A stretch of DNA of 64,000 nucleotides, from assembly GCA_029690005.1 (NCBI GenBank), contig CP121458.1, positions 4,481,872 through 4,545,871 of the forward strand, written 5' to 3'. Position numbers and translations under genes: made by a program. Source of the stretch: Prescottella defluvii (GTDB taxonomy: Bacteria; Actinomycetota; Actinomycetes; Mycobacteriales; Mycobacteriaceae). This document shows, piece after piece, positions 3,331 to 55,702 of the stretch (position 1 is its first letter; each line of letters starts with the position of its first letter). The notes below the pieces were generated by a model. The model had not been told where the DNA came from. It was given only the letters and a program-made list of their open reading frames with translations, and ran no database searches.

Positions 3331-6300
3331 GTGGCACAAGGCAGTGACCGGTGGGTCGAGGTGTCGAAGTCGGCGTTCGCCCACGAGGCCGAGGGTCTGA
3401 GCTTCCTCCAGGACATCGTCCCCAACGCCTCCCCGTATCGCGCGTGGACGAACTTCGAGTTCATGGACAACCACGGTCTCTGGCACGAGGTCGATGCCCT
3501 GGTCCTCGGTCGGCGTCGTCTGCATCTGATCGAGCTCAAGCATTTCGTGGGTCGTCTCGGAGGCACCGAGACGAACTGGGTGCGGCAGCTACCGAGCGGC
3601 AAGGTCCGCACCCAGCGCTCTCCCCTCCTCCTGACTCGCCGCAAGGCACAACGGCTCGCGACGCGCATCGAGGAGGAAGCCCGCAAGGTCGCGATCGCGC
3701 GCGGGCTCAATCCGGAGAAGGTGCGCCGGGCGCTGCCGTTCGTGCAGGAGTCGGTGTTCCTGCACGCCGAGGGTTTCACGGTCGACATGCCGGAGCTGGC
3801 GAAGTCGGGGCTGTTCGGCCTCGACGGCGACGAGCACGGGTCCCACCTGCCGGGTATCTCGACTCGTATTCTCGAGCCTCCGATCGACGGGCGACGTGTC
3901 GACGAAGACATGAGCGTAATCATTGCCCTCGCCCTCGAGAACCTCGGCATCTCCCGCCGCACCGAGCGCGAGGCCGGGTCGTGGACGATCTCGGGTGCCC
4001 CGCTGGCGTCGGGTGACGACTGGCAGGAGTGGCCGGCTAAGCACAAGGGCACCGACGAGCATGCCCGTGCCCGCATCGTCTCGTTCCGCCCGGGCACTCC
4101 GGCGCACGCCCGTGCGGCAGCGCATCGGAAGATGCAGCGCGAGTACACGCTGCTGTCGTCGCTGCGGCACGAGTCGATCGTGGCCCCCGCGACCTGGTGC
4201 AGGACGACCACGGCAATACGGTCCTCGTCTACCCGGAGACCCCGGGTACGAGCCGCTCGATCTGGCGTTGGCGACGCGCACCCTCACCGCCGAGCAGCAG
4301 TTGACGGTGTTGACGCAGGTCGCGGAGGCGCTTGCGTATGCGCACCGCAATCACGTCGCGCACCGCGGCCTCGGCCCGTCGACGGTGCTGATCCATACCG
4401 AGCGACTGGACGCGGGCCGGGTCGACGTGCGGCTGGTGGACTGGTCGTGGGCGGGGCGCATCCACGACGGAAACACCCGGTCTGCAACGATGCTCGGCAC
4501 CGCGGTCACCGCGACGGGCGGGGCGGCTGCGGACGAGGTGTATCAGGCGCCGGAGGACCGGTGGGCGCCGGATTCGGATCGCATCGCGCTCGACGTCTTC
4601 TCCCTCGGTTCCCTCGCGTACTTCCTGCTCTCGGGCGGGCAGAACCCGGCGCGCGACCGCGCGGCACTGCTCGAGCGACTACGAGTCGAACAGGGTCTGG
4701 ACCTGGCCGCGTCGACGGGACGGTTCGTCGACGAGCGACTGCGCGAGCTGGTGCTGCGGACGACCAGCCCGTCGGTGTCGAAACGCATTGGCATCGATGG
4801 GAAGTCGGGTCCGCCGACGTTCGGTGCGCAACAGTTCGCGGCCGAGCTGGACGCGTACCGGCGGGAGCAGGCACCGACCGCCGCCGTGCCGGAGATCGAC
4901 CCGCTGAACCCGCCGACGGGCGCGCTGCTCGACGACCGGTTCGAGGTGCTGCAGGTGCTCGGGTCGGGGTCCACGGCCCGCGGCATCCTCGTCGCCGACC
5001 ACGACCACGACGGCCGCCAGCGCGTCCTCAAGGTCGGTCTGGACGACACGGCGACCCATCGGCTGCAGGACGAGGCGGAGGTCCTGACGACGCTCGCCCA
5101 ACAGCAGCCGCCGGTGCCCGGCGTCGTCGAGCTGATCGAGGGCCCGCTGCAGCTGGCGCACCGCACCGCGCTGCTGCTGACCAACTGCGGCGAGCAGACC
5201 CTCGCCGACGTCATCCGCTACACCCCGCTCGGGGAGGCGCAGCTCAAGACGTGGGGCCTGGGCCTGCTGGACGCGGTCGTGGCGCTGGACACGGCGGGCA
5301 TCACGCACCGCGACATCAAGCCGTCGAACCTGGGGCTGTCCCGCCCGGACGGCAAGCGTTCGGCGAAGGCGCGGCTCGCGCTGTTCGACTTCTCGCTCTC
5401 GCGTGCCGCCGTCGAGCTGCTCGACGCCGGCACTCCCCGTATCGGGACCCGTTCCTCGGCACAGGGATCCGCACCGCCTACGACTCGGCGGCCGAGCGCT
5501 GATTCGGCGGCGGTGGTGCTGTACGAGATGGCCACCGCCAGCACCCCGCTCTACGGCGACGGGGTCAGCGACCCCCGGGTGCTCACCGACGACGTATCGG
5601 TGTCGGCGGAGGACTTCGGCGGCCACTCGCGCACCCGCGCGGAGGCGCTCGCCGGGTTCTTCCGCACCGCACTGGCCCGCGACGTGCGCGACCGGTTCGA
5701 CACCGCGACCGCGATGCGTAAGGCGTGGGCGGCGGTGTTCGCCGCGAAGGCCGTCCATCCCGAGCCCGCCTCCGCGGTGGTGCACGCGCCGGTCATCACC
5801 GCGACCGCGGAGGTGAACCCGCCCACGGTCGCCGTCGGGGAACCCGTCGCCACCTACGGTTCGTTGCAGGTGCTCGCGACGGAGTTCGCGCGCGCGTCGG
5901 CGACGAAGTCGTCGGCGATCCGCCGGCAGGTTGTAGAGCTGGTCCTCGGCAGCCACGACGCCGCGCCGGCCGACCCGTTCGTCACCTACCAGGTGCTGGC
6001 ACCGCTCGCCGGGGTCACACCGGGCCGCATCGCCCAGATTTTCGGCGAGCTGCGTGACCTGTGGGCGAAGAACCCGCAGTCGGCTGCGACCGTGGATTCG
6101 CTGTATCGACGCGGGCTCGTGCTGCTCGAATCGACTGGCGGCGCAAGCACTCCCGAGCTTCTCGCCCGCGAGCTGGCCGCCGCGCTGGACACGGACGGAC
6201 TGCGTGATCCGCAGCGCACCGCCCTCGGGGCGTTGCGTTTGGTCCTCGCATCGGCCCCGCCCGCCCCCGAACCGGAGCCCGGCGAGGAGGCGACGGACAC

Positions 6301-7471
6301 CGAGAGCCTCGACCTGCAGTTGGTGCGCCGCCAGTCGACGGGCACGGTCGCGATGATCGCGACGCCCGCGGTCGCGCGCCGCCTTCCCGCGGCCCTGGCC
6401 AGGGAGGCGGACGGCCTCGTCGCGGCCGCTGACGCTCAGGGTCTGGCGCTGGTTCCGCCGACGGACGCCGATCGGCCGCTGCGAGCGGCCGCGGCGGCGG
6501 TGCTCGACATGGCACCGGATCAGGTAGAGATCCCCGGTTACGCGCTGCTGCGGATCGCGGCCGCGTCTTCCGGCGAGGTGTCGCTGTCGGCGCGCGACGA
6601 GCTGCATGCGCACGCCCTCCCGATCCGCGACGTGTTGACACTGCTGCTGCGGGGCCTGTCCGATTCGGACACGTTCGGCCGGGCGGAGCTGGAATCGCGT
6701 GTCGCTGCCCGGTTCCCGGCGCGGGCGAAGGCGCTCCCCCGCCGCCCGGAGCTCGACGGTCTCGTCGCGGCCGTGGTGCCGGGGATGGCGTGGAGCGAGG
6801 AGCGCGGGCGCTACGAGTTCGAGAACGCAACGCAGCGGCTCTCGCACGTGCCCACCCTGCACACCCTCGCCGGTTCGCCTGCCGTCGCAGGCGGTTCCGG
6901 CAGCGATGTCGAACTGCTGCTGCAAGCCAGCATCCGGGAACGCACCTTCCGGGCGCTCGGGGTACCGATGGGCGCGTCCGATCAGGTGGCGGACGCACTG
7001 GTGGAGCGATTCGGGGCGGTGCACATTGACGTCACGGATGCGCTGCTGGACGAGCTGCGCTCGCGTGCGGAGCTGGCCGGCATTCCGTGGGACGCGATCC
7101 TCGCCGCCGACTCCGGCGCGGCCGCGGACCGAGAAGGCTTGAAAGGGTTTGTCGCACAGTCCATCCCGGCGGTCATCGACACCGTCAACTCGGCCGGTGG
7201 CCCGGTGGTACTGACCGACCTGTCGACGCTGGCGGCGTACGGGCAGCTTGGGGCGTTGCAGGCGTGGGTGGACGTGACGAATCCGCCGCCGCACGCGGTG
7301 TGGGCGCTTATCCCGCAGCCGGAGGAGTCCGGTGGCCGGCCAGGTGCTCGCGTCGACGGGACCGCGCTACCCCGTACCAGCCCGGAGCAGTTCGTGCAGG
7401 TGGACCGGCTCGGTCTGCGCGCACTCCTTGCCAGTAACGATGAGAAGCACACGATGAAGGAGCATGTCTGA
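3331..7471 (+). CDS. pglW: BREX type 2 / Pgl serine-threonine kinase PglW: N-terminal NERD-like domain plus two tandem protein-kinase domains. Two 1-bp frameshifts near 4192 and 4250.
   Basis: NERD-like motif DALVLGRRRLHLIELKHF. Kinase 1 has HRGLGPSTVLI...DWSWAG. Kinase 2 has GSGSTARG...HRDIKPSNLGL...DFSLSRA. Reading frame goes 1 to 3 to 2 across VAP|RDLVQDDHGNTVLVYPETPG|YEPLDLALA, consistent with two single-base deletions. Stop TGA overlaps the pglX ATG (TGATG). Start uncertain: ATG 3013 is the longest ORF, GTG 3331 lies just before the NERD domain. Confidence 0.8.
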
Positions 7472-10400
7472 TGGCGTTGGCCACGATCTCGGGAGCCGCG
7501 CTCAAGGATGCGCTCAAGCCGCAGCTGACGCTACTCGTCGACGACATGCGGACTCGCCTGACCGCCGACGCCGATGAGCTGGCACGCTGGCGGACCACGC
7601 ACCGCGCTGCCGTCGCCGAGAAGCGAACCGCCGTGTCGTGGACCGACTGGTCCGAGGATCAGCTCACCCAGGCCGCGGTCGGCTGGCTGCTCACGTCCGT
7701 GTTCGTGCGGTTCTGCGAGGACAACTTTCTCCTCGGCGATACCGCCGTCTGGATCACCCACCCCGACCCTATGCTCCGGCAGCGGGCCGTGGACGCCGAG
7801 CAAGCGTTCTACCGGAGCGATTCCGACAATTCGTACCGTGAGTGGCTCGAGCAGTCATTCGACGCACTCCGCGGGTTCCCGGCGACGCAGTCCCTCGTCG
7901 ACGAGCACGCGGCACTGAACATTATCGCGCCGTCGTCGGATGCGGTGCACCAGGTGCTGTCGTTCTGGCGGCAGGTCAATGAAACTGGTGAACTCGAGTG
8001 GACGTTTCGAGATCCCGAACTGTCTACACGCTTCCTAGGCGACCTGTACCAGGACCTGTCCGACTTCGCGAAGAAGAAGTACGCACTGTTGCAGACGCCC
8101 GAGTTCGTCGAGGAGTTCATCCTCGACCAGACTCTCGAACCTGCCTTCAAGGATCGGCCGCTGGAAGGGTTCAAGGTCATCGACCCGACGTGCGGGTCGG
8201 GGCACTTCCTGCTCGGCGCCTTTGCTCGATTGGTCGATCGGTGGCATCGGGAGGCCCCCGGGCTTGACCTGCGGACGCGGGTCGACAACGCATTGTCGTC
8301 CGTCTATGGAGTGGACTTGAACCCGTTCGCCGTGGCGATCGCCAAGTTTCGGTTGATAGTCGCGGCGTTGAAGGCATGCGGGGAAACAACTTTGGTGAAT
8401 GCGCCGAAGTTCGCGTTGAATCTCGCGAACGGGGATTCGCTGCTCCATGGGGCCGAGCAGGGTGGGGCGGCGGCCCTCGACTTCGGTGACCTGTCGTTCG
8501 ACAAAGACGCTGTGGTGTCGGGGTTCGCGTACTCGACCGAGGATGTGGCGCTGCTGCGGAAGATTCTCGCGCCGGGACAGTACGACGTGGTGGTAGGGAA
8601 TCCGCCGTACATTGTCGTTTCCGACAAGGCTTTGAACGCTCGGTACCGCGAGATCTACCACTACTGCAAGGGCAAGTACGCGCTCACAGCTCCATTCATG
8701 GAGAGATTCTTCGACCTCGCCAAGCCCGGCGAACGTGCGGGATGGATTGGGCAGATCACATCGAACTCATTCATGAAGCGGGAGTTCGGCGCACCGGTCA
8801 TCGAGGACCTACTCGCCAGGCTCGATCTCCGCCTCGTCGCCGACACGTCCGGTGCATACATTCCCGGCCACGGCACCCCGACCGTAATCATCGTTGGTCG
8901 CAACCACCCATCAGTCCACCAGAGTGTGCGCGCAATCCTCGGCATCCAGGGTGAACCGGGAGCACCCGATGATCCTGCCAGGGGCAAGGTGTGGACGTCG
9001 ATTGTCGAGCACGTCGACCAAGCCGGGTTCGAGAACCAATGGATCTCAGTTGCTGATCTCTCACGAGAGAACCTCAGTAAGCATCCCTGGAGCCTCAGCG
9101 GCGGCGGGGCGGTCGAGCTCCTGAACACAATTGAAACCGCAAAGATCGGTCAAGTCAGTGACCGAGTCACCTCTATCGGATCGACAGCCATCACCGGCGA
9201 CGACGATGCCTTCGAGTTCGGACGAACCTCACCGCCGCGTATCCGCATCAACGAGATCCCGACTCGACCCTTTATCACCGGAAGCATGATCCGGGATTAC
9301 TGCATCTCCGAGCCACATAATGTCATTTACCCCTATGGCGATTCTGGCCCGGCCCTTAACGACGCAGCGTCGGATCAAATCGAGAGATGTATGTGGCCAC
9401 TGCGCACTGGCCTCGCACGCGGCCTCGCGTTCGGAAAGACGCGTGCCGACAAGGGGATGCGATGGTACGAGTACATCCTCCCGAACCACCCACGCCTCGC
9501 ATCCTCCATGCTGATCACGTATGGCTTCATCACGACTCATCCTGGGTTCGTGCTCCATCGTGGAGGAAGGTCATCAACCACTCCGCGATGGTCTTATCCC
9601 TCGGCGATCTGCAATCCGAGGACGATCACCTGCGGCTGCTGGGCACCCTCAACAGCTCGACCGCCTGCTTCTGGCTCAAGCAGAACAGCCACAACAAGGG
9701 CAGTACTGTCGACTCGTCGGGAGCTCGCACCACACTGTCGGAGTGGGAGAACTTCTTCGAGTTCACCGGGACGACGCTGAAGGACTTCCCACTCCCGAAG
9801 TCGGCCCCGCTCAACCGTGCTCGCCTCGTCGACGAGCTTTCGCAACAGCTCGCAACCCAGGAACCCTCCGCCACGATCGAAGCGAACGGGGGCAGCATCG
9901 CGGTCATCGAATCTGCGAGAGCTGAGCACGCCCGTATCCGCGCTCTCATGATCGCCGAGCAGGATGAGTTGGACTGGGAGGTGTACCGGAACTACGGACT
10001 TGTCGACGAGGAGCTGTTCCTGCCTGTCGGCCAGGCTCCCGGGATCGCGTTGGGTGAGAGGGCATTCGAAATCGCGCTCGCCCGCAAGGTTGCGACCGGG
10101 GAGGCGGAGACCTCATGGTTCGAGCGCCATGGGTCCACGCCCGTCACAGAGATTCCCGCGCACTGGCCAGCAGAGTACCGGGACCTGGTGGAGAAGCGTT
10201 TGCAAGCGATCGAATCGAACCCATTCATCCGGCTGTTGGAGAAGCCGGAGTACAAGCGGCGGTGGGCTGGGGACTCGTGGGATGTGAAACTTTCCCGTGC
10301 GCTCAAGGACTGGCTGCTCGATCGACTCGAGGACAAGTCGCTGTGGTTCACCACGCAGGGCACCCCGCAGATGTTGTCCGTTGCCGAGCTCGCCGGGCAT

Positions 10401-11090
10401 GTGGAGAAGGACCCCGAGTTCATCACCGCACTCGACCTGTGGGCCGGAAAGAAGGACGCGCCAGTCACCGAGACACTGGTGAAGGTGCTCGCTGATGAGG
10501 CAGTGCCGTATCTGGCGGCGATGCGCTACAAGGACTCCGGTCTGCGTAAGCGCGCGGAGTGGGAGCGGGTGTGGGATCTGCAGCGTGACGAGGACGCCGG
10601 GCTGATCAAGGCGACCGACATTCCGGTGCCACCGAAGTACACCAGCGCCGACTTCCTCAAGTCGTCGTTCTGGAGTCACCGCGGCAAGCTGGATGTGACG
10701 AAGGAGCGCTTCATCTCCTACCCCGGAGCCGGCCGCGCCACCGACCCGACGCCGCTGTTGGGTTGGGCGGGTTGGAATCACGCGCAGCAGGGCCTCGCCC
10801 TGGCAACGATCTACGCATACCGCGAGTCCGAGGGCACGGCGCTCACCGAGCTCGTCCCGGTAGTCGCCGGCATCGCGGAGATTCTCCCTGGGTCAGGCAA
10901 TGGCATTCCGGCGTCGACCCCACCTTCGGCATCGACCTCGCCGACTACCTCACCGGACAACTCAACGAAAAGTCGGCAGCAGTCGGAGTCCCCGTCCCCG
11001 ACCTTGGCAACTGGCGTCCCCCAAGACAACTCGCGGCCGCAAGACCAAGGTGGGGTGAGTCTGTCGGACCCATCGGGCATCATCCGGTAG
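7471..11090 (+). CDS. pglX: BREX adenine-specific DNA methyltransferase PglX/BrxX. One 1-bp frameshift near 9562.
   Basis: Motif I DPTCGSGHFLLGAF. Motif IV VVVGNPPYIV. Conserved BREX-MTase C-terminal half (EDDHLRLLGTLNSSTACFWLKQ, WENFFEFTGT). Frame 1 to frame 3 at HRGG|KVINHSAM: ggaggaaagg appears to have lost one a. Confidence 0.85.
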
Positions 11091-11247
11091 TCACATGAGG
11101 AGGCAGTGGGCACCGTTGCCCACGGCGCAGTACCGAACGGAGCACTATGACCCGGACCGTCTTCCGGCGAGAAGCCTGTAGCCCCAAACTCTGCGCGACG
11201 CGAAGTGTCGCACAGCGGACAGCCGTCCTCCGTGCGGCGACAGTTCG

Positions 11248-11703
11248 ATGATTGCCCTCACCGAGGCGGTCGGGCCATCACTGATTCTTCTACTGACAGT
11301 GATCGTATTGCTGCTCACGTCGCGAAGGACCTTCTCGTGGCCACAACCTGAAACGTGGGTTGATAGCTCGTCTTTCGTAAGTGCCCCATCAGGCCGGAGC
11401 GACGACCTGGAGATCGCACTTGAGACCGCAGCTGCCGTGAACTCATACAATGTGCATGCAGAGAACGATCCGCGTGTCCGCCTTCAATCAGCAGTCAGGC
11501 TGAGACCTTCGGACTATCAAGTAGCGATCCGCGACATATCACGTCACTTCCGAGAAGGTCGAGTTGTGTCACTTGACCTTGCAGGCATGGATCCTCCGCA
11601 GGCCGCTCGACTTGTCGATTTCTGCAGTGGAATGACGACAGTCGCATCCGGCTGGATATTTCGAGTAACGGACAGAGTTATAGTTCTCACACCATCTACA
11701 TAG
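11248..11703 (+). CDS. Membrane-anchored SepF-domain (DUF552) protein: N-terminal TM helix, linker, C-terminal SepF core
   Basis: C-terminal 65 aa (PSDYQVAIRDISRHFREGRVVSLDLAGMDPPQAARLVDFCSGMTTVASGWIFRVTDRVIVLTP) matches the SepF core position by position, following the pattern P..Y..A..I......VV..L.....QA.RLVDF.SG.....G.I.R......TP. N-terminus LILLLTVIVLLLTS is hydrophobic. TTG start. AT-richer than its flanks. Intact. Confidence 0.7.
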   Translation: MIALTEAVGPSLILLLTVIVLLLTSRRTFSWPQPETWVDSSSFVSAPSGRSDDLEIALETAAAVNSYNVHAENDPRVRLQSAVRLRPSDYQVAIRDISRHFREGRVVSLDLAGMDPPQAARLVDFCSGMTTVASGWIFRVTDRVIVLTPST

Positions 11704-11756
11704 GCCGAATCCACGGACAGCCCTGTCAATTTCTATGATTCTAGCGGAGGGTTCCA

Positions 11757-12629
11757 ATGACTTCGATAGCAAATCTCGATGACTCTTACGGAGAAATCCC
11801 TTCAACTCCGATAAATGAGCAACTACTGACCCTCAATCACCAAATTCGGCAAACGGAACACTCACTGGCTGTGGCGCAGCGCAGAAACAAATGGCTCAAG
11901 TTGTCCTTGATATTTGGACCACTACTGGCAGTTCTCCTGTACTGCATCCCGTGGATCCCAGGGATTCCCACAAGGGTGTTAGTGGCCGCGTTCATTCCAG
12001 CGATACCGTTCTCCATCGCATTCTGCATCGCCGCGTACCGTCTGAACAAATACCCAGGCGGACCCGCCAAACCCGGCAGCCGAGGCAAAGAGCGAGTTAG
12101 CGAAGGACAGATCGAACTCCAGCTTGCACTCCAACGCGAAACCAGAAAGTCATTTCTTGCCAGCGCAGATATCCCAACTAGAGTTCGTCGAATCACCTAC
12201 AAGGAAGATGCTTACTCGGATATCGATCAACTTCGAATCGAGAGTAATCGCTATCGGCAAGTCAACAACTTCCTGCAGGGGATCCTCATAATCGGTTCAC
12301 TGGCCGCAACAGCTGCAGCAGGAATTGCGTCGGAAGTCCCCTCACTAAGGTGGGCCACCCTGGTTATTACATTCACGGTCGGCTTGTCCAGTGGGTTCAT
12401 GGGGTACTTCAAGTACAAGGAACGCAGCTTCTACCTTCAGCAAACAGCCGACGCAATTGAGCATGAGTGGGAAGCTTTCGACATTGGGGTCGGTCGCTAC
12501 AAACGGATCACCGATGAAGATGAACGGCTCGCAGAATTCGTCGAGGAAGTGCATCGCCTCAAGTCCGAACAGAAGAAGCGTCAGCAGAACTTGGAGCAAC
12601 CGCCAGAATTGCGCAATACGAACGATTAA
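11757..12629 (+). CDS. 4TM protein with two SLATT/DUF4231-like halves (candidate pore-forming effector)
   Basis: Two TM hairpins (LSLIFGPLLAVLLYCIPWIP / VLVAAFIPAIPFSIAFCIAAY and ILIIGSLAATAAAGIAS / WATLVITFTVGLSSGFMGYF), each followed by a helical cytoplasmic segment. After TM4, KYKERSFYLQQTADAIEHEWEAFDIGVGRYKRI...LAEFVEEVHRL fits the DUF4231/SLATT post-TM signature. 54 bp downstream of the SepF-like gene, same strand. Low GC. Intact. Confidence 0.55.
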   Translation: MTSIANLDDSYGEIPSTPINEQLLTLNHQIRQTEHSLAVAQRRNKWLKLSLIFGPLLAVLLYCIPWIPGIPTRVLVAAFIPAIPFSIAFCIAAYRLNKYPGGPAKPGSRGKERVSEGQIELQLALQRETRKSFLASADIPTRVRRITYKEDAYSDIDQLRIESNRYRQVNNFLQGILIIGSLAATAAAGIASEVPSLRWATLVITFTVGLSSGFMGYFKYKERSFYLQQTADAIEHEWEAFDIGVGRYKRITDEDERLAEFVEEVHRLKSEQKKRQQNLEQPPELRNTND

Positions 12630-13087
12630 TTCGAAAACCCGAATTGTCCTTTTTTAGGGGGCCTGACTCCACGCGCAGGTGGGTCGAGCCTCCACTGACA
12701 TTGGCTCTGAATCAGCTTGCATGACAGCGCCTTCGCCGATGTCCTAGAAACCCGCACGAAGCCGGCAAGGTGGGCTCGTCAATCTTGGGCGGGCAACCCG
12801 GAATCCGGACTTCATTCTGATTGCCCGAGCAAAGTCGATGCGCCATTGAGGACAAACACCATCGCCGGCGCCAGGCCGCGCCAGGCTCAGCCGTAAAATC
12901 CAGTCGAATACGAGACTATTTTGACCACAATAAGCGGTCAGTTTTCCTGACCTAGCTTTTCACCTGAGCATGCAGGAGTACCCTCAGACTGTGGCGGAGT
13001 TCGGAAACCGCAGGCCTTCAGGAAACCCGAATCGGCTGAGAGCGGCGAGCCGCATGCACTCTCGATTGGGACGGACCGCAAAACTGC

Positions 13088-17210: not shown

Positions 17211-20200
17211 ATGTTCCCGGCGCCACGTCCAGCTCCGCTCGTACGCTGCGCGAGACCTTCGACATCCCGCAGACCCACGGCACAAACGACTATGTGCTGC
17301 GACTGTCGGACTCCGTCGCCGACGACCAGCTGGCAGCCACCGTCGACTCCTACGTCGTCACCCCCGCTATCGCGGAGGCGTTCGACCGGGCGCTGGCCGT
17401 CGTCGAGGAGTCGCTGAGCAGCGGCGAGAACAAGGCCGCCTACCTCAACGGTTCCTTCGGCTCCGGTAAGTCGCACTTCATGGCGGTGCTGTACGGCGTC
17501 CTCGGGCACTCCCCCAAGGCGCTGTCGGTCCCGAGCTGCAGCCGATAGTCGCCAAGCATCCGCAGATCGCCGGCGCGAACCTGCTGCGACTGACGTTCCA
17601 CTTCCTCGACTCGACGACCATCGAGTCGGCCCTGTTCGAGCAATACCTGCGCCAGATCGCGCGGCTGCACCCGGACGCACTGCCGCCGGTTCTGCACTCC
17701 GCGGGCGGGCTGTTCACCGACGCCGACAACCGTCGCGCCGAAGTCGGCGACGAGAAGTTCTTCGCCACCCTCAACGCGGCCGGCGGCACCACCGCGTCCA
17801 CAGGCACCGTCAACTGGGCCGCGCTCGGCGCCACCACCGGTACCTGGACCGCCGCCACCTACGCCGCGGCCACCGCCCCCGACGCCGACCCCGCCGAGCG
17901 GGCCCGGCTACAGCAGGCGCTGATCGCGTCCTACTTCACCAGCTACTCGCGCAACACCGACTGGCTGTCCCTTCGAGGACGGGCTCGCGGTCATCGCCGA
18001 CCACGCCAAGTCCCTCGGCTACGACGGCGTCGTCCTGATGCTCGACGAGCTGGTGCTGTGGCTGACGTTCCTGATCACCGAACGCGAACGCTTCAACGCC
18101 GAGGTGCAGAAGATCACCAAGCTCGTCGAGACCAGCCGCGGCCGGCGCGCCGTCCCGGTCGCATCGTTCATCGCCCGCCAGCACGACCTGTCCCGCTGGG
18201 TCGCCACCGGCTCGGATTCCGGCGCCACCCAGCAGGCGCTCGAGCAGGCGTTCGCGCACCAGGCGGGCCGCTTCGGCAACGTCGAGCTCGGCGACGAGAA
18301 CCTCCCCTTCATCGCAAAGAGGCGACTCCTGCAGCCCCTGGGCCCCGACGCGCAGGCCGCACTCGACGCTGCGTTCGCCCGGCTCGACCGCAACCCGCAG
18401 GTGTGGGACGTGCTGCTCGACGGTGTCAACACCGACGACCAGCACCGCGGCTCCGATGCCGACGCCTTCAAGCTCACCTACCCGTTCTCCCCCGCCCTCA
18501 TCGCGACACTGCGCGCCCTGTCCGGGCAGATGCAGCGCGAACGCACCGCGCTAAAGGTGATGCAGCAGATGCTGCAGGACTCCGCCGACCGGCTCACCGT
18601 CGACCACGTGATCCCCGTCGGCGAAGCCTTCGACTACGTCATCGACAGCGCCAACTCCACGCCCATCAACGACGCGGCCGCGCAGACGTTCAAGACCGCG
18701 CGCACCCTGTGGACCGAGAAGCTGCGACCCCTGCTGTTCCGCAACGCGGGCGTCGACGAATCGGTGTCCGACGACCAGGTGCCGCCGGGGCTGCGCGCCG
18801 ACATCCGCATCGCCAAGACCCTGCTGATGTCCGCTGTCGCCCGAACGTGCCCGCACTCAAGCAGATCGACGCCGGACGGCTTGCGTCCCTCAACCATGGC
18901 AGCGTCGTTTCCCTGATCCCCGGCGACACCGTCGGCCAGATCACCAACAAGGTCAAGCAGTGGGCCGCGGAGATCCCCGAACTGTCCGTGACCTCGGACC
19001 AGAACCCGATCATCTCCGTCACCCTCGAATCCGTCGACTACGAACGGATCATCACCCGCGCACAGGGCGAGGACACCGACGGCCGCCGCCGCGAACTGAT
19101 GCGATCACTGCTCGGCGAACACTTCCGCGTGCTCGGTGCCGAGCGCACCCTCGACGACGCCCTGCTGCGGACCGTCGTCTGGCGCGGCACCGACCGACCC
19201 GTCGAGGTAGTGTTCGGCAACGTCCGCGACCGCGGCTACCTCTCCGACGACCGGTTCCGCCCCGTCACACCGGGCGCGCTGCGGCTGATCGTCGACCTGC
19301 CGTTCGACGACCCCGGTCACACCATCACTGAGGACCACGACCGCATCTCGGAGCTCCTGCGCACCGGGCAGGACCGCTTCACCGTCGCATGGCTACCGAC
19401 CTTCTTCCCGGACAAGGTGGTTCGCCAGCTCGGTCGACTCGTCGTCCTCAACTACGTCCTCGCCGGTGAGCGCTGGGCCACCTACGCCAACGAACTGTCC
19501 GAGGGTGACCGGATCGCCGCCCGCTCGATTCTCGAGCAGCAGCAGTCCCAGGTCCGCGGGCAGCTCGGCAACGCCATCCAGGTCGCCTACGGCACCGCCT
19601 CCGGGGCCAAGTTCCCGAGGGCCAGCCGCCGCTGCGGTCGTTGCACGCCGGGTTCACCGCGCAGCCGCCGATCGGCAACACCCTCGGCGAGGCAGTCGAC
19701 CGGCTCATCGGCGACACATTCGACGCCCTCTACCCCGACCACCCGGACTTCAGCCCGGCGGACGCACTGATCACCCGCCGCGACCTCAACACCGTCCTCA
19801 CCCGGTTGCGGGAGGCACAGTCCAGATCGACGGACGCATCCCCCTCGAAGGCGGCGCCCGCGGCGACCGCGACATCGCCCGACGCGTCGTCGAGCCACTC
19901 GGCATCGCGAAGGTCAACGAAACCCACCTCATCTTCGGGCCGGAACAGTTCACCGCCTGGCAGACCCGCATCACCCAGGAACTCGCGCGGCTCTCGATCG
20001 ACGAGCAGGGCGACGTCGACATCGACGTGCTCCGCACCGCGATCAACGCCAGCGGCCCCAAGCGCGGTCTCACCCCCGACATCGTCGACCTCATCGCGGC
20101 GGCCTGGGCGGCGCAGACGAAGCGATCCTGGTTCCTGCACTCGTCGCCCACCACCGAGGCGATCATCGGTGATTTCCGCCGGGCACCACCCTGCGGCTCG

Positions 20201-21006
20201 AGCCGCTGCCGGAACGGCAGACGTGGACCGACGCCGTCACCCGCTGGAAGTCGTGGACCGGGCAGACGGTCAACGAGTACCTCACCGCAACCAACCTGGC
20301 CGCATTCGCCGAGCAGGTCCGCGACTTCGCCCGGTCCGGTTTCGCCGGCCGCGGCCAATTCGTCTCCGCGCTCGGGCAGGCCTACAACTACTTCGGCCTC
20401 GACCCCGAGGTGGGCCGGCACGCGCTCGCCTCGGATCTTCTCGATCTGTTCGAGGCGCGTCTCGCGCACGTCACCAACCTCGACCTGGTCGCGGCCGTCG
20501 CGGGAGCGTCGTTGCGTGGCAACGACATCGAGGCAGGGAAGTCGCTGGCTACCGCCGACGCCGTCGAACAGGCACTGCTGCGGTATCCGCTGACCCGCTG
20601 GAACGTCCTGAGGGAGGCTGCAGCAGGCTCGGACGAACGAGCCGTGCAGGCCAAGGCGATCCTCACCGATCTCGCGAAAGCGGTGCAGGCGCAGGAGTTC
20701 ACCCAATCGTTGTCCACCTCGCTGGCCGCCGCCGACCGTGCCCGCGACACCTGGCTCGAGGCCGCGGTGATCGTGACGCCGCCCCCGGTCGTCCAGCCGC
20801 CGGTGACACCGCCCCCGGTCATCCAGCCGCCCGCGACGCCACCAAACAACCCGGACGACATCCCGCTACCGCCACCGGCTCCCACCGAGACGTTCACGGT
20901 CACCGGCGCGAACGCCACCTCGGCCGTCGAGGCGCGCCTCGCCGCCCTGCTCGCCAACTACCCGAACGACGAGTTCACCGTCACCATCACCAGGGTGCCG
21001 CGATGA
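17211..21006 (+). CDS. pglY: BREX ATPase PglY/BrxC, multiply frameshifted (at least 5 single-base indels)
   Basis: BrxC N-terminus incl. [16 protein letters not shown] Walker A. Collinear BrxC-like segments continue through ORFs 18038-18916, 18058-19770, 19466-20593, 19641-..., 20410-21006. Frame switches near 17527 (ccc gag to ccgag), 17975, 18855 (gcc ccg to gcccg), 19620, 19810 and 20180. C-terminal Pro-rich repeat [22 protein letters not shown]. Start approximate: an early shift near the ATG at 17211 is likely. Confidence 0.8.
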
Positions 21007-23797
21007 CCGTGGCGGCCACCCTGCCGGAGGCAGACCTCGCCGGCATCCGCGCGGCCATCGACAACGCCCGCCGCAGCCGGCACGAATCCGGGGTCATCGC
21101 CCTTGCCGCCCTTCCCCGTTGGGAGGGGCCCGATGTGGTGGACCTCGCCGGGCAGTCGGTGCGGGTGCGGACGGCCTCGTCGATTCTGGCGATCCGTGAC
21201 GCCCTCACCGAGCGGTCCCGGTACGACTGGGTGGTGGTCCTCACCGACCAGTCGGCCGCCGACCTGCCGGCCGGCGTCCGCGACCACCTCGTCGCCGGCA
21301 CACTGTCGAACCTGGACCCGTGGCCCATGCTCCGGGAGCTGTTCAAGGCCAACAAGCAGGAGTTCAACCTGCTCTCCCTCGACAACGGCGCCGCGCGGTC
21401 GGCGCTGCGGGAGCTCGACGAGACCGTGCCGCCCGCGCCGGGCGGCGTGCTCACCGGCGATCACCTCTTCGGATCCCTCGCGCATCGCAACTTCGGGTTG
21501 GCGCCCAACGAATTCACCCCGCACCAGGTGGCATTGTGGTCCACCGATCCAGAGTGCACAGCTCGGTTCGCCGCGTGGCAGTCCCGCGCCGAGGGCACCC
21601 TCCTCGACCAGTTCTATGTGTGGCTCGAACGCAAGCTCGGCCCACTCGGCCGCGCCATCACCCTGGTGTGGCGTAGCAGCGGGCCCGCGCAGCTGGTTCC
21701 ACTCGGTCTCGTCGCGGCGTTGATCGATGACTCCGCCACCGCTGCCACCGTTTTCCCGGCACCGGTCGACGTCACCGTGCGCGTGCGCACTCTGCTCGAG
21801 GTGGAGCTCGGTCACCAGGCCCTCACCGAGCAACAGCTCTCCGGGTGGGGCGACACCGCCACCCTGGCCGTGGCCGGCACCGACGTGCCCGACGAGACCC
21901 TCCGCCGGGCGGAGGATCTCGTCATCCGGCTACAGGCCACCGCGCTGGTGGGCCGATCCGACGTACTGCCATCGGCGCTCGCTCCGCGCATCGCACGCTT
22001 CGCCACCGCGCTTGCGGCCTCCAAAGAAACGGCCGCTGAGCACGCAGATACCCTGACCGCGGTCGAGAACGCCTGGGCCGACGTCACCGCGCACCGGCTC
22101 GCCCGCGCCGACCGGCCCGACGCACCCCGCGACGTGCGGGTCGGCGCGGCGGCCCTGCGCCTGCTGCGGTGGACTAGGCGCCCCAACCCGTCCCCGTCGA
22201 CTCTCGCCGACTGGCTGACGCTCTACCGCAGCGATCTGTCCTGGGTGGACGGCGCCGTCGACGAAACCTTCGTCGGTGCCGACGACTCGACGCTCGCCGC
22301 CGCCGCACACCACATTGCCCAATCGGTGCGTGCGCGCCGCGCCGCGCAGGACCGTGCCTTCGCCGGACTGCTCGCGTCCTCCGGTACCCGCCGCCTCACC
22401 GGACCCGGAACCCCCACCTACATCGAGGACGTCCTCGACACCGTCGTGCGCCCGCTGACCGCGCGTGCACACGGCTCCATCCAGGACGCGACTCCCTCAC
22501 CTGTGCTGCTGATCGTCGCCGACGGGATGAGTGCGTCCGCCGCGAACGAAGTGGTCGCAGATGCGTTGCGACGCAACCGCCCCCAGTGGCAAGAGTACGT
22601 CCCGGAGAACACCGAGCCGGTGACCGTCGCGCTGGCCGCGCTGCCGACGGTCACGGAGTTCTCCCGTTGTTCGTTGCTGTCCGGGATCCTGGCCCGCGGC
22701 GGACAGGTGGAGGAACGCGCCGGCTTCGCCACCTGGCTGGCCGGGCACGGTCTGCGTGGACAGGGACAGGTGCTCTTCCACAAGGCGGACCTCGAATCGG
22801 TCTCGCGCGGTAGTGCGCTCGCGGGGACGTGCGCAATGCCGTCGACGACACCACCCATCGGCCGGTGATCGCGTGCGTGCTCAACGACATCGACGACGCG
22901 CTCGACCGCTCCGACCCGATCGGAACGGTGTGGACCACAGACCGGTTCAAGCGCCTGGACGCCCTGCTGTCCGCTGCCGCCGCTGTCGGCCGCACTGTCG
23001 TCCTCGTCTCCGATCACGGCACGTTGTCGAACGTCGTGAGCAGCCGAGCGTGCAACGCGGCGACCAGATTTCGGCACGGTATCGTTTCGCCACCGGCGTC
23101 GATGCCGCGACGCTGCCGGCCGACGAGGTGCTCGTCGACGGACCTCGCGTGCTCACCGACGATCACCGCGCGGTCCTCGCGGTCGACGAACAGCTGCGCT
23201 ACACCGGGTTGAAGGCCGGCTACCACGGCGGTGCCGCGCTGGCCGAGGCCGCCATCCCGATCTCGATCCTCGTCAACGGCACTGCGCCTCGCCATCTCGG
23301 TCTCACCGAAGCGCCCGCACCGCAGCCCGTCTGGTGGGAACCCACCCGTGCGGCAGCTCCTGTTACCGCCGCCCCACCGCTACGCCGAAGCCGTCGAAGA
23401 AGGCGCCGGCCAAGGCGCCGGCACAGGTGGAGTCGCTGTTCGACTTTGGCGCCCGGCCACCGCCGAGCAGGCATCGGCCGCACCGGTCGGCGGGCGCGAC
23501 CGGGTCGCCGAGCTCCTCGCGACCGACCTGTTCACCCAGCAGTACAAGGTGTTCGGGCGGAAGATGGATCGCGACGCCGTCGCGACGCTGCTGCGCGAAT
23601 CGATCGACGGCCACGGGGTGCTTCCGCTGACCAGGGCCGCGCAGATCCTCGGAGTCAAAGCGTTCCGGGCCGGTCCGGCCGTGCAGGTGCTCGCGCAGGT
23701 CCTCAACACCGATGGCGTCGTCGTCCTCTCCGTGCATGGCACCGACGTCGAACTCGAGTCCGCGGCGCTGTTCGAGCAGTTCGGGGTCGCGCCGTGA
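21003..23797 (+). CDS. pglZ: BREX alkaline-phosphatase-superfamily protein PglZ, at least 3-4 frameshifts
   Basis: ATG overlaps the pglY stop (ATGA). Conserved [16 protein letters not shown] and VVLVSDHGT motifs. Frame switches near 22835 (ggggg to gggg), 23050, 23340, 23440. Ends ...FEQFGVAP*. Confidence 0.8.
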
Positions 23798-25086
23798 GCG
23801 GGCTGTCGCCGGTGCGCCGCCGGGAGATCCTGCAGTCGCTGCGTCAGGGCACCGTCCCGGACGGCAACCTCGACGTTCTCGCCGTCGGTATCGACCGGTT
23901 CGCGAGCACCGTGGACGCGGACCTCGACGCCGTCGCCGCGGGCGGTTCGCTGTTCAAGGCGGTCCGCGGCGAGTACGGCTCAGGCAAGACGTTCTTCTCC
24001 CGGTGGGTCGAGCAGCGCGCGATGCGCCGCGGCCTGGCCGTCGCCGAAGTACAGATCAGCGAACTCGAGACGCCGCTGCACAAACTGGAGACCGTGTACC
24101 GCCGCACCATCGAGGAACTGCGCACCTCGGCCTTCGCGAAGAGCGCGTTCCGGCCGGTCATCGACGCGTGGCTGTACGGGATCGAGGAGGACGCGGCCAC
24201 CGCCGCCGGGGTCGACGAAGCCACGTCGGCGCAGGTGGAAGAGCTGCTCGAACAGCGACTCGCGTCGGTGGCGACCGCCACCCCCGTGTACCCGATGGTG
24301 TTGCGCGCGTACCGCTCCGCGCTCGAACGGGAGGATGCCGCCACCGCCGACGCGCTCATCGCCTGGCTCGGCGGACAACCCCATGTCGGTGCTGCGGCGA
24401 AGCGCACCGCCGGGATCCGACAGGACGTCGACCACTTCCTCGCGATGGGCTTCCTGCAGGGTCTGCTCGCCGTCCTCAAGGGCGCCCGGCACCCCGGTCT
24501 CGTCCTCGTCATCGACGAGGTCGAGACCCTGCAGCGGATGCGCAGCGACTCTCGCGCCAAGGCCCTCAACGCGTTGCGGCAGTGGATCGACGAACTCGAC
24601 TCCGGCCGCTACCCCGGCCTGTACCTGATGATCACCGGCACACCGGCGTTCTTCGACGGCCGCTCCGGTGTACAGACGCTGCCGCCCCTGGCGCAGCGGC
24701 TGCACACCGACTTCGGCACCGACGCCCGCTTCGACAACCCGCGCGCGCCGCAAATCCGGCTCACCGGCTTCGACCTGGACCGGCTCGTCGAGGTCGGCAT
24801 CCGCGTGCGGGACGTCTACGCCGACGGCTCCGCCGCTCCCGAACGGGTGTGCCGCCTCGTCGACGACGCCTATCTGCGCGACCTGGCGTCCGCGGTCGCC
24901 GGTGAACTGGGCGGGAAGGTCGGCGTCTCGCCACGGCTGTTCCTCAAGAAGCTCGTCGCCGACGTCCTCGACCGCGTCGACCAGTTCCCCGATTTCGATC
25001 CGCGGCAGCACTATTCGCTCACCATCGCGGACACCGAGAAGGCGGAGGCGCTACGCGCCGCCACCGCCGACGAGGTGGAGCTGTGA
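23794..25086 (+). CDS. brxD: BREX ATP-binding protein BrxD (DUF2791 P-loop)
   Basis: GTG overlaps the pglZ stop (GTGA). Walker A RGEYGSGKTFFS. Walker B LVLVIDEVE. About 430 aa. Intact. Confidence 0.8.
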   Translation: MSGLSPVRRREILQSLRQGTVPDGNLDVLAVGIDRFASTVDADLDAVAAGGSLFKAVRGEYGSGKTFFSRWVEQRAMRRGLAVAEVQISELETPLHKLETVYRRTIEELRTSAFAKSAFRPVIDAWLYGIEEDAATAAGVDEATSAQVEELLEQRLASVATATPVYPMVLRAYRSALEREDAATADALIAWLGGQPHVGAAAKRTAGIRQDVDHFLAMGFLQGLLAVLKGARHPGLVLVIDEVETLQRMRSDSRAKALNALRQWIDELDSGRYPGLYLMITGTPAFFDGRSGVQTLPPLAQRLHTDFGTDARFDNPRAPQIRLTGFDLDRLVEVGIRVRDVYADGSAAPERVCRLVDDAYLRDLASAVAGELGGKVGVSPRLFLKKLVADVLDRVDQFPDFDPRQHYSLTIADTEKAEALRAATADEVEL

Positions 25087-27200
25087 CGGCCGGCTTCGAC
25101 CAGCTCGATCCGGTACTCCAGCACCACATCGTCAACTCGCTCGGCTGGCCAGGCCTGCGTCCACTACAGGACGAATCGATTGCCCCGATCACGGCGGGCT
25201 CGGACGCGATCCTGCTGGCACCCACCGCCGGCGGCAAGACCGAGGCCGCGATGTTCCCACTCCTGACCCGCATGCAGGAGCAGCGATGGCACGGATCTCC
25301 GGCGTCTGCCTGTGCCCACTCAAGGCACTGCTCAACAACCTCCAGCCGCGGATCGCCGAGTACGCCGCGTGGATGGGTCGCGGCGCCATGACGTGGCACG
25401 GGGATGTCGGTCAGTCCGTTCGTGACCGGATCAAGCGGGACCGTCCCGACGTCCTACTCACCACCCCGGATCCTTCGAGTCGATGCTCGTATCCGAAAGC
25501 GTCGACGCGTCAGAGGTTCTCGGTGGCGTGCAGGCCGTGGTGGTCGACGAGGTCCACGCCTTCGCCGGCGACGACCGCGGCTGGCACCTGTTGGCCGTGC
25601 TCGCCCGGCTCGAGTCGCTGCTCGGCCGGAAGCTGCAACGAGTCGGGATGTCCGCCACTGTCGGCAATCCCGACGAGCTACTCGGCTGGCTGCAGGGCGG
25701 CCGCACCTCCCCTGGCCGGGTGATCGCGCCGGCGGTGGCCGGCGGCACGGTGGTCCCGAGATCACCGTCGACTCGGCTCGGCAGCGTTGAGAACGCCGCG
25801 AAGGTCATCGCCGCGCTACACGCCGGCGAGAAACGACTGGTGTTCGTCGACTCACGCCGGCTCGCCGAGGAACTCGGAACGATGCTGCGAGGCCGTGGGA
25901 TTACGACGTTCGTCTCCCGACTCGTCGCTGTCTGCCGCGGAACGACGCGAATCGGAGCAGGCGTTCGCCGAGGCCCGCGACTGCGTCATCGTCGCCACTT
26001 CGACGCTTCGAGCTCGGCATCGACGTCGGCGACCTCGATCGGGTCATCCAGATCAACGCGCCGCGCACGGTGTCGTCGTTCCTGCAGCGTCTCGGCCGCA
26101 CGGGCCGACGACCCGGTAGCACCCGCAACCGCCTCTTCCTCGGCGTCACCGACGAGGCGGTGCTCAGCACGCTCGGGACGCCGCAGTGCTGGTCCACCGG
26201 CTGGGCTCGAACCCGTCGTCGCGACACCCGAACCGCGCCACATCGCGGCGCAGCAGATCCTCGCGTCGGCGCTGCAGACCCGACGGGCGCCGCTCGACGG
26301 GTGGCAGGACACGTGGGGTTCCTTGCCGCTCTTCGGATCCGACGGCCACGAGATCTTCGACTACCTCTTGGAAGAGCGCTTCCTCGAACACGATCGGGCA
26401 CCGCCTTCATCGGGCCCGAGGCAGAGAAGCACTTCGGGCGCCGCCACTTCATGGAGCTACTCGCCGTCTTCGCTGCAGCACCGGAGTTCAAGGTCTTCGC
26501 GGGACGCCAGGAAATTGGATCGGTCGAGACCAGCGTGCTCACCGACGAGATCGAAGGACCACGCGTCTTGCTGCTCGGCGGCCGGTCCTGGAAGGTCACC
26601 CACATCGACTGGAAGCGGCGTCAGGTGTTCGTGGAGAACACCGATCTCCAGGGTCGCGCGAAGTGGATGTCGCTGCCAGACGGCGCGTCGTTCGAGATCA
26701 CCCGCGGCGTGCGCGAGGTTCTCCTCGGCACCCAACCGGCCGGAGTGACCCTCACCCGGCGGACCGCCGCCACGTTGGAGGACGTGCGCCTGCAACGCGC
26801 CGACCACGTCACCGATGGCGCCTTCGTCATTGCGCGCGACGGACGCGACGACTGGTGGTGGTGGACATGGGCCGGAGCGAAGGCCAACCGCACCCTCGCC
26901 GCATGGGCGCCGGACCTCATCCCGCCCCGTCAGCGCATCGGCGCGGAATCGCTTCGTCTGCACAGCGATCTGTCGGTCGAAGACATTCGGCGCGGGCTCG
27001 CAGCGCTGCGCGCGCCGGGTATCGAGCGTCCGCTTCCGCTGGTGGACAAGAACGCGCTCAAGGGGCTGAAGTTCTCCGCGGCGCTGCCGGAAAGGTTGGC
27101 CCGGCGCACACTCGCGGCCAGAACCGTCAACAAGCCGGCAGCCGAAACCGTCATCCACGAGAAGGCGCAGATCGTCAACCATCCGACGTCGCAACACTGA
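25083..27200 (+). CDS. brxHI: BREX Lhr-like DEAD/DEAH helicase BrxHI, at least 5 frameshifts
   Basis: GTG overlaps the brxD stop. Motifs LLAPTAGGKTEAAMFP (I), VVVDEVHAF (II), MSATVGNP (III), QRLGRTGRRPG (VI). Segments spread over all three frames (25083-25391, 24668-25723, 25483-26748, 25787-26119, 26070-27200). Confidence 0.75.
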
Positions 27201-29226: not shown

Positions 29227-29304
29227 CTCCTCCAGCGAGACGAACCGAACACCACTCACGAGCACGGCCCGACAGGCTTCCGCGACAGGACATGCCTCCA
29301 CCCG

Positions 29305-33250: not shown

Positions 33251-33387
33251 TCACCTGCGGCGAGGGCCCGGTCGCTCGCGTAGCCACCCGCGATCGAGCC
33301 CTCACCGTCAAAGGTATGCCCGCGTGCGCCGGGGTGCCACCGTGTCGTGCACCGCCGCTGTCCGTGATCGGTGCGATCATCGCCGCA

Positions 33388-34151: not shown

Positions 34152-34185
34152 ACCACCCGCCGACTTTCTCGGGGACACTGGCCTC

Positions 34186-41861: not shown

Positions 41862-41875
41862 GCTCGCTGTGTCCG

Positions 41876-55698: not shown

Positions 55699-55702
55699 CG
55701 TC

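Follow-up and report, generated by a model that had tools for sequence, protein, structure and literature searches.

The window, a 64-kb stretch of DNA that we analysed as a whole, carries the genes of a type 2 BREX system with an embedded cassette of lower GC content, together with recBCD and two sets of lut genes. All six members of the BREX type 2 system (PglX, PglZ, PglY, pglW, brxD and brxHI) were recognised, either by NCBIfam equivalogs or by alignment. The features are as follows:

1–2250, plus strand: ZacC-like defence helicase gene (3′ part), a single open frame (PADLOC ZacC)
3331–7471, plus strand: pglW, NERD nuclease and Ser/Thr kinase (Pfam NERD and Pkinase)
7471–11090, plus strand: pglX, BREX-2 adenine methyltransferase (NCBIfam BREX_2_MTaseX)
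11248–11703, plus strand: intact ORF of a SepF-like gene belonging to the embedded lower-GC cassette (Pfam SepF)
11757–12629, plus strand: cassette gene for a SLATT-like (DUF4231) membrane protein, intact ORF (Pfam DUF4231)
13088–16873, minus strand: NACHT/STAND NTPase gene of the cassette, intact (Pfam NACHT)
17125–21003, plus strand: pglY, BREX-2 ATPase (tblastn against L001/L002; NCBIfam PglY)
21003–23794, plus strand: pglZ, BREX-2 phosphatase (NCBIfam BREX_PglZ_2)
23794–25086, plus strand: brxD, intact (NCBIfam BREX_BrxD, positions 2–421 of 423)
25089–27182, plus strand: brxHI helicase gene (tblastn against L002; Pfam DEAD match)
27650–29226, plus strand: SLFN-g3/DUF2075 helicase gene, split near 28.83 kb (Pfam PF09848)
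30218–31133, minus strand: HNH_2 endonuclease gene; 1-nt deletions lie at 30397 and 30639 (alignment; tblastn)
31322–33244: TY-Chap1, Band7 and NfeD genes with lesions at 31657, 31784, 31883, 32098, 32935 and 33127
33387–34869, plus strand: OGG-fold and SIMPL genes, intact (single-frame tblastn)
36702–45152, minus strand: recD, recB and recC (alignment to L084 and L086, 89% nucleotide identity)
47396–48115, minus strand: rearrangement scar in which a lutC fragment abuts a duplicate of the recC 5′ end (blastn, four-way alignment, tblastn)
52804–57562: on the minus strand, lutC1 and lutA1, both intact, and lutB1 with a deletion at 53576; on the plus strand, lctP with at least two shifts
59524–62410, minus strand: second lutCBA copy with one deletion per gene, at 59832 (lutC2), 60571 and 61958

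Interrupted frames in the BREX genes

Lesion positions were taken from nucleotide alignments to the intact genes of relatives, and frame changes from tblastn searches with the relatives' proteins. All BREX genes except brxD were broken into several frames, the tblastn pieces being consecutive and changing frame. Altogether, 24 single-nucleotide indels, which we judged to be artefacts, were located in five of the six genes, and these genes are not open and translatable in the sequence as given.

In pglW, for which intact homologues of 1,375–1,383 aa exist, alignment to L082 and L083 revealed deletions of 1 nt at 4181, 4240 and 5434 and a 1-nt insertion at 5501, the latter two compensating each other. 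The NCBIfam model BREX_PglW was matched over positions 1–272 and then 307–782 in different frames. Three 1-nt deletions were found by alignment in pglX (9563, 10885 and 11020), the last one reducing a run of six C to five; BREX_2_MTaseX aligned over positions 2–690 and then 693–1134 in two frames (934 and 684 bits), and the tblastn frame order was 1, 3, 2. The pglY gene contained six 1-nt indels, namely deletions at 17532, 18839, 19613, 19821 and 20178 and an insertion at 17972. Its tblastn pieces followed the order 2, 1, 2, 1, 3, 2, 1 relative to the intact L001 and L002 proteins, and pieces of the NCBIfam BREX-2 PglY model covered positions 264–520 and then 562–819. For pglZ, 1-nt deletions were observed at 22820, 23017 and 23450, with an additional 2-nt difference near 23378 in a variable linker; BREX_PglZ_2 was matched with 392 bits over positions 4–577 within one frame, and tblastn passed from frame 3 to frame 2. 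The pglZ and pglY products were 83–93% identical to the intact L001 proteins. Eight 1-nt indels were present in brxHI, comprising deletions at 25304, 25463, 25757 and 26393 and insertions at 25777, 25919, 26007 and 26206, and the pieces, with 59–94% identity each, matched the intact L002 protein in the frame order 3, 2, 1, 3. The brxD gene carried no lesion (1.8 events expected by the context model) and aligned in one frame with 92.6% identity to L001 over 462 aa.

Lesions across the window

The census covered 37.7 kb of aligned blocks within the 64-kb window and yielded 54 single-base indels (41 deletions and 13 insertions) relative to intact relatives, or 1.4 per kb. The BREX genes contributed 24 in 17.8 kb (1.35 per kb), and the non-BREX genes, that is recBCD, lutABC and their neighbours, 30 in 20.0 kb (1.50 per kb). 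Per bin of 0.5 kb or 1 kb, the variance of the lesion counts approximated their mean, as for a Poisson process. All frame-breaking lesions were of ±1 nt, the exceptions being a few longer indels where the alignment was poor or the sequence variable, and the other indels were in-frame.

The recD, recB and recC genes, which are intact in the relatives L084 and L086, contained 13 lesions: nine deletions (38247, 38842, 39658, 39750, 40451, 43179, 43353, 43712 and 44937) and four insertions (37510, 41785, 44015 and 44038). The two copies of the recC 5′ fragment, which are 95% identical, bore an identical 1-nt deletion in a four-way alignment. Between the lutABC paralogues, the sequence contexts differed at the four lesion sites. 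The HNH_2 gene matched the L085 protein in frames −3, −2 and −1, and PF09848 was matched over positions 1–238 in one ORF and 234–354 in another ORF of the SLFN-g3/DUF2075 gene. In the ZacC-like helicase part no lesion was detected, with 2.95 expected by the context model, and PADLOC ZacC gave one contiguous match of 703 bits (residues 1–747 against model positions 285–1016 of 1019).

A first-pass annotation, made from the letters of this DNA, had described dense frameshifts in every BREX gene. This holds for five of the six, brxD being unbroken. Its counts agreed with ours for pglY (at least five; six found) and pglZ (at least three; three found), but were too low for pglW (two; four found), pglX (one; three found) and brxHI (at least five; eight found). 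The further lesions that it had placed in recB, recC, recD, the HNH gene at 30.2–31.1 kb, lutB1, lutA2 and lutB2, and the splitting of DUF2075 and lctP, were recovered by alignment, tblastn and Pfam, as was the deletion common to both recC copies. Likewise, SepF, SLATT, STAND, brxD, lutC1 and lutA1 were indeed intact, as judged from open frames or full alignments. The same had been said of lutC2, which is contradicted by the deletion at 59832.

The OGG-fold and SIMPL proteins exactly matched WFR71725.1 and WFR71726.1, labelled 'Prescottella defluvii'. These exact proteins occurred only in a single-contig 5.75-Mb GenBank genome and had no WP_ accession, which would fit a non-RefSeq long-read assembly. 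No paper on the 'Prescottella defluvii' genome was found in the literature, and the plasmid searches returned only an R. opacus BREX-2 locus of 80% identity, with nothing close to the remaining window.

The embedded cassette and the adjacent clean stretch

Alignments of the STAND protein to six homologues extended from end to end, were interrupted by a single 1-aa gap and contained no stretch of low identity; homologues shared 61–67% identity over 90–95% of the length. The true start of its gene probably lies about 57 codons within the ORF. In PADLOC, the cassette of SepF-like, SLATT and NACHT genes matched no system, except for a weak PDC-M54A match of the STAND protein. The same slot between pglX and pglY is occupied by TIR genes in L082 and by Hachiman in L083, and auxiliary effectors embedded in BREX loci have already been described (PMC12839542).

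No lesion was present in the 5.1 kb of cassette coding sequence, for which context models expected 5–7 (P(0) = 0.0004–0.02). When corrected for a scan of the whole window, this gap was weakly significant (P ∼0.04–0.09). The stretch 5502–9562 in pglW and pglX was equally lesion-free, although it partly reaches 73% GC. Low GC was rejected as a sufficient reason for the sparing of the cassette: a Poisson regression on local GC (±5 to ±250 nt) gave slopes indistinguishable from zero, and between GC fractions of 0.60 and 0.76 the binned lesion rate in the aligned blocks did not change. Homopolymer content alone was rejected as well, k-mer plug-in models with k = 2–6 still expecting 6–8 cassette events; a model with k = 8 expected 3.9, but it is sparse. 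Compared with the aligned blocks, the cassette contained C/G runs of at least 3 nt at ∼0.6 times, and CCCC/GGGG at ∼0.3 times, their density.

Sequence context of the lesions

The lesions favoured a few contexts: deletions tended to shorten a C run between T and G by one base, or to take out a single C or G within G/C clusters, and insertions tended to add one base at or beside CTCG/TCGA. The motif TCCC was found at 14 of the 41 deletions and TCCCG at 10 of them, the latter against a background of 1.9% (p = 3e-9). A C/G run of at least 3 nt was touched by 27 deletions. CTCG/CGAG was found at 10 of the 13 insertions (background 15.5%), and we know of no documented error signature that corresponds to such a CTCG/TCGA-linked bias. 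The deleted bases showed no strand asymmetry beyond base composition. As read from the alignments, only about 15 of the 41 deletions unambiguously shortened a run, and about a dozen took away a lone base, as in GGCG to GGG. The C/G run-length spectrum of the window was nearly that of the relatives, with most C4 and C5 runs unchanged. Deterministic under-calling was rejected, as the window retains 52 TCCCCG sites and the run-length spectra match. Since these spectra resemble those of the relatives, the process is stochastic and context-biased rather than systematic.

Selection on the restored frames

Restoration of the frames left no internal stop codon in ∼9,900 codons; the two stops that were flagged, in recD and lutC, fall within the final few codons and are the natural gene ends. 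With frames restored, dN/dS amounted to 0.04–0.18, compared with 0.03–0.22 for controls between intact genes. For recBCD, the values of the window versus L084 (0.08–0.12) were slightly above those of L086 versus L084 (0.03–0.09). The hallmarks of pseudogenisation, namely nonsense substitutions, mixed lesion sizes and a raised dN/dS, were not observed. Those of long-read error were: ±1-nt lesions spread over gene classes, context bias with recurrence, and normal purifying selection.

Discussion

Because genes of all kinds in the window were struck equally, we conclude that the frameshifts are very probably base-level indel errors in the consensus of an unpolished or under-polished long-read assembly of a high-GC Prescottella/Rhodococcus chromosome. 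The living bacterium would then probably possess an intact BREX system, and judging from the sequence, pglW, pglX, pglY, pglZ, brxD and brxHI, together with the other affected genes, are probably open and functional in it. The errors would have occurred at about 1.4 per kb, roughly Poisson-distributed over all gene classes, and would be biased to a few contexts (losses in T-CCC(C)-G and gains at CTCG/TCGA). The cassette may have been spared by three factors acting jointly, namely sparser error-prone motifs, patchy consensus quality and chance; patchy quality would also account for the clean adjacent stretch of pglW and pglX.

The first-pass annotation had likewise preferred an assembly or basecalling artefact to BREX inactivation, and this preference is borne out by the equal rates, the ±1-nt sizes, the lack of nonsense codons, the normal dN/dS, the motif specificity and the recC copies. 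The cause that it had named, systematic homopolymer under-calling in GC-rich sequence, is not. Loss of 1 nt from a homopolymer was clear in the ∼15 deletions noted above, fewer than half, and many lesions were insertions, which it had not mentioned, or deletions outside homopolymers. The run lengths of the window and its relatives spoke against systematic under-calling, the spectra being nearly the same. Nor does GC-richness explain the sparing of low-GC genes, given the GC-independent rate, the events expected in the island and the equally clean stretch 5502–9562.

Real inactivation of BREX-2 by accumulated frameshifts, with the SepF-like/SLATT/NACHT cassette kept by selection, would agree with brxD as the only unbroken BREX gene next to intact embedded genes, and with a number of cassette lesions below the context-model prediction. 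We nevertheless consider it extremely unlikely: recBCD, lutABC, Band7, NfeD and others were hit at equal density, the lesions outside poorly alignable or variable stretches were exclusively of ±1 nt, nonsense codons were lacking, dN/dS was normal, and a GC-rich part of pglW and pglX was as clean as the cassette. In view of bacterial mutation spectra, 54 neutral indels would imply hundreds of substitutions and several premature stops, which also counts against inactivation. Reductive decay or hypermutation of the whole genome, with recently acquired low-GC genes still unhit, would explain why lesions occur in almost every longer GC-rich gene of the window and the foreign island is free of them. 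However, 1.4 indels per kb would break about three quarters of all 1-kb genes, which would be incompatible with viability. With neither stop codons nor signs of relaxed selection, and with lesions that follow specific motifs and not just tract length, the probability of such decay is practically negligible.

It is highly unlikely, too, that real phase variation underlies one or a few of the homopolymer changes in BREX genes, with errors accounting for the majority of lesions. The candidate would be the change from C6 to C5 at 11020 in pglX, which sits in one of the longest C runs of the locus, and there is a precedent in Streptomyces coelicolor, where Pgl is switched on and off by phase variation via a variable G tract in pglX (PMC4365076). 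Yet the lesion at 11020 is indistinguishable from 40 like lesions, including those outside BREX, and its tract is merely 5–6 nt long and lies ∼15 codons before the gene end. Somewhat less improbable, though still unlikely, is a composite possibility: either the hot spots (T-CCC(C)-G, and CTCG/TCGA including several CTCGAG) are native DNA modification motifs that misled the basecaller, the low-error 12 kb from 5.5 to 17.5 kb, including the cassette, having fewer modified sites, or at least one BREX lesion is a phase-variation switch.

The frameshifts are thus an ordinary finding that is not specific to BREX, and on the sequence evidence they are almost certainly consensus errors. Taken at face value, the record shows dead BREX-2, recBCD and lactate-utilisation genes, all of which are most likely intact, and surveys that use this assembly to assess pseudogene load, phase variation or the integrity of defence systems would be misled. 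The biology that remains is the pglX–pglY junction of Rhodococcus/Prescottella BREX-2 loci as a slot for varied auxiliary defence cassettes, an embedding that is already known.

Comparison with known systems

As in other BREX loci with embedded auxiliary defence genes, a foreign cassette lies between core BREX genes; the present one (SepF-like, SLATT/DUF4231 and NACHT STAND) differs in corresponding to no PADLOC system, the weak PDC-M54A match aside, and its role in defence is putative. With Pgl of S. coelicolor the locus shares that a change in pglX homopolymer length would turn off defence in a type 2 BREX system (PMC4365076). Here, however, five of the six BREX genes and unrelated genes were struck, mostly outside long tracts, and a single switch tract cannot account for 54 lesions. 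Pseudogene decay of the Mycobacterium leprae type likewise leaves many genes interrupted by frameshifts, but in the window nonsense substitutions were lacking, the lesions outside poorly alignable stretches were of ±1 nt only, and dN/dS was as in intact relatives. Residual long-read indels, especially those of nanopore R9-type data, are alike in being of ±1 nt, mainly deletions, and located in short C/G runs and motifs. Consensus errors of nanopore assemblies consist mostly of errors at methylation motifs and in homopolymer length (PMC6591954), and a few hundred of them can inflate the annotation of a high-GC genome by hundreds of spurious CDS (PMC11649196). The density of ∼0.14% with split genes throughout the window is within the range reported for assemblies with little or no polishing (PMC6591954, PMC11649196). 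Unlike in published long-read error profiles, to none of which we could match them, the hot spots here are T-CCC(C)-G for deletions and CTCG/TCGA for insertions, and the density is patchy, with two clean stretches of 4–5 kb.

Organization of the window and of the BREX locus

The window is an actinobacterial chromosome segment with a GC content of 68%. Two of its intact proteins, an OGG-fold protein (33387-34148) and a SIMPL protein (34186-34866), exactly match GenBank WFR71725.1 and WFR71726.1, which are both labelled 'Prescottella defluvii' and both located on one 5,751,951-nt contig; no RefSeq WP_ accession was listed for either exact sequence. From left to right, the gene order is as follows:

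ZacC-like helicase, at the left edge of the window
type 2 BREX, pglW-pglX-(cassette)-pglY-pglZ-brxD-brxHI
SLFN-g3/DUF2075 helicase and two HNH_2 genes, after brxHI
TY-Chap1, Band7, NfeD, OGG and SIMPL
recD, recB and recC
rearranged segment, after recC
two lutCBA copies, with lctP in between

Judged on all six gene families, the BREX locus is an ordinary BREX type 2. Positions 1-2250 hold the 3′ two thirds of the ZacC-like helicase (PADLOC ZacC, 703 bits), and BREX-2 therefore adjoins another defence gene. Past the BREX genes, the downstream DUF2075/SLFN helicase gene has a 3′ end (29098-29227) that is 87% identical to positions 11-140 of the Logan contig L082, where this counterpart lies just upstream of pglW; BREX is thus placed differently relative to the helicase gene in the two genomes.

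A rearrangement adjoins recC (45153-48115): ∼2.6 kb, including a gene for a Big_3_5 Ig-like protein (45443-46915), parts recC from its native upstream region, which persists at 48.0-48.1 kb behind a duplicate of the recC 5′ end (47721-48115). At ∼47722, this duplicate is fused to a fragment of lutC that is frameshifted (47396-47723). The lutCBA copies (52804-55698 and 59524-62410) are 74-91% identical and lie 6.72 kb apart; in the range fetched for the Prescottella loci L084 and L085, a single copy is present.

Mapping of the lesions

Lesion positions were taken from multiple nucleotide alignments to intact relatives. For pglY to brxHI, these were L001 (Rhodococcus sp. NPDC058521) and L002 (R. 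olei), with 82-83% nucleotide identity and all four genes as single ORFs; for pglW and pglX, L082 and L083 (R. zopfii; 82-87%); and for recCBD, lutABC and their neighbours, the Prescottella loci L084, L085 and L086 (84-89%). The relatives' proteins matched the window as consecutive pieces in shifting frames, and consecutive positions of NCBIfam equivalog models were matched by successive gene pieces.

Successive reading frames and lesions per gene
pglW: frames 1,3,2; 4 lesions
pglX: frames 1,3,2; 3 lesions
pglY: frames 2,1,2,1,3,2,1; 6 lesions
pglZ: frames 3, then 2; 3 lesions
brxD: 0 lesions
brxHI: frames 3,2,1,3; 8 lesions
recDBC: 13 lesions
further lesions: HNH_2, TY-Chap1, Band7, NfeD, a small hypothetical gene, lutB1, lctP, lutC2, lutB2, lutA2

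Pfam coordinates showed that DUF2075 and lctP are also split. In total, single bases were deleted at 41 sites and inserted at 13 across 37,717 aligned bases. The alignments thus confirmed the frameshifts that the first-pass annotation had reported in BREX and other genes, but its counts were too low; moreover, it described deletions only, leaving 13 of the 54 events unaccounted for, and it took lutC2, which carries a lesion, to be intact.

Artefact or inactivation

Lesions are as dense in BREX genes, at 1.35 per kb (24 lesions over 17.8 kb), as in non-BREX genes, at 1.50 per kb (30 over 20.0 kb), and the counts per 0.5-kb bin were Poisson-like (mean 0.69, variance 0.78). Genuine decay with 54 indels is expected to leave many substitutions, some of them nonsense, plus deletions of mixed sizes. 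When the frame was restored by following the codons of the relatives along the nucleotide alignments, however, no internal stop was present in ∼9,900 frame-restored codons, and dN/dS between the window and its relatives (0.04-0.18) was normal when compared with that between intact relatives (0.03-0.22). Furthermore, the frame-breaking lesions were ±1 nt, the exceptions being a few longer indels where the sequence is variable or aligns poorly. These observations argue against real decay of the BREX genes. One pglX lesion could in principle be a phase-variation switch like that of Streptomyces coelicolor Pgl, where PglX is toxic without PglZ and a G tract in pglX mediates real phase variation (PMC4365076); this candidate is, however, indistinguishable from the 40 similar deletions elsewhere.

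Where the lesions fall depends on sequence context. TCCC/GGGA was present at 14 of the 41 deletions (background 4%) and TCCCG at 10 (background 1.9%, p = 3e-9), while CTCG/CGAG touched 10 of the 13 insertions (background 15.5%) and TCGA six (background 8.5%). In addition, the duplicated recC 5′ ends, which lie at 44.8-45.15 kb and at 47.7-48.1 kb and are 95% identical, share an identical deletion (TCGG-GACGGG in the window, TCGGCGACGGG in relatives), exactly as context-driven error predicts. Together with the equal density, the absence of internal stops and the normal dN/dS, this bears out the earlier preference for an artefact over inactivation: the lesions almost certainly arose in sequencing or assembly, and the artefact overlies a normal BREX-2 locus. 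The complete, single-contig source genome would fit long-read sequencing. Nanopore consensus errors are concentrated in homopolymers and methylation motifs (PMC6591954), and a few hundred such errors inflated the CDS count of a high-GC genome (PMC11649196). The BREX, recBCD and lut genes are therefore best regarded as intact until contradicted by accurate reads.

Systematic homopolymer under-calling, the mechanism initially proposed, was rejected: C/G runs in the window have nearly the same length spectrum as in the same genes of relatives, 52 TCCCCG sites are still unshortened, and the events include insertions (a quarter of the total) and lone-base losses. Although 27 of the 41 deletions touch a C/G run of at least 3 bases, only ∼15 are clear run shortenings on our reading of the alignments, and in about a dozen the lost base was a single C within GGCG or a single G within CGCC. 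The insertions at 17972, 26007, 26206, 31784, 41785, 44015 and 44038 cluster at or beside TCGA, several sitting at CTCGAG or creating it. Behind these TCGA-linked insertions there might be a motif, XhoI-like or TaqI-like, that is methylated in native DNA, or a basecaller quirk.

Event-free stretches

The embedded cassette is free of lesions and its genes are intact, as first annotated; the alignment of the STAND protein with six homologues ran from ∼residue 58 to the C terminus, showed a single gap of 1 aa and contained no stretch of low identity. For its 5.1 kb of coding sequence, a uniform rate predicts 7.3 events, k-mer plug-in models 6.5-7.9 (k = 2-6) or 3.9 (k = 8), and a motif-class model 5.6 (P(0) = 0.004). 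Low GC, previously offered as the reason for this sparing, was rejected as an adequate cause, since the event rate in the aligned blocks was flat over 0.60-0.76 GC at every scale tested and the models still expect events. CCCG/CGGG occurs in the cassette at 0.31 times its block density, and the scarcity of error-prone motifs adds to the sparing. At 5502-9562, comprising the 3′ half of pglW (73% GC) and the initial two thirds of pglX, the motif-class model also expects 5.6 events and none was observed. This stretch being equally clean, sparing does not separate the cassette from BREX. When the context model was simulated over all 44.9 kb where lesions are detectable, an event-free gap of cassette length arose anywhere with P = 0.04-0.09, the second gap with P = 0.02-0.06 and both together with P = 0.006-0.025. 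A mildly patchy consensus quality is a fair summary, with depth or partial polishing as obvious candidate causes.

A variable slot between pglX and pglY

The cassette fills a slot between pglX and pglY, the content of which differs between loci:

window, 11100-17100: SepF-like, SLATT and NACHT STAND genes
L082, 9031-11298: TIR-domain/ThsB-like genes and LD_cluster3
L083 (R. zopfii), 17763-22107: Hachiman (HamA and helicase)
L004, L005 and R. opacus pLP414: empty, pglX directly adjoining pglY

These Rhodococcus/Prescottella BREX-2 loci thus have a variable slot at the pglX-pglY junction. On pLP414 (L081; 2301-8418 and 19925-22313), pglW is divided into a NERD gene and a kinase gene, which are 2 kb apart and flank two unrelated genes, and the expected place of brxHI is without a listed CDS. 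The PLSDB table omits pseudogenes, so this BREX locus may be truly degraded. BREX loci with embedded auxiliary effectors have already been described (PMC12839542).
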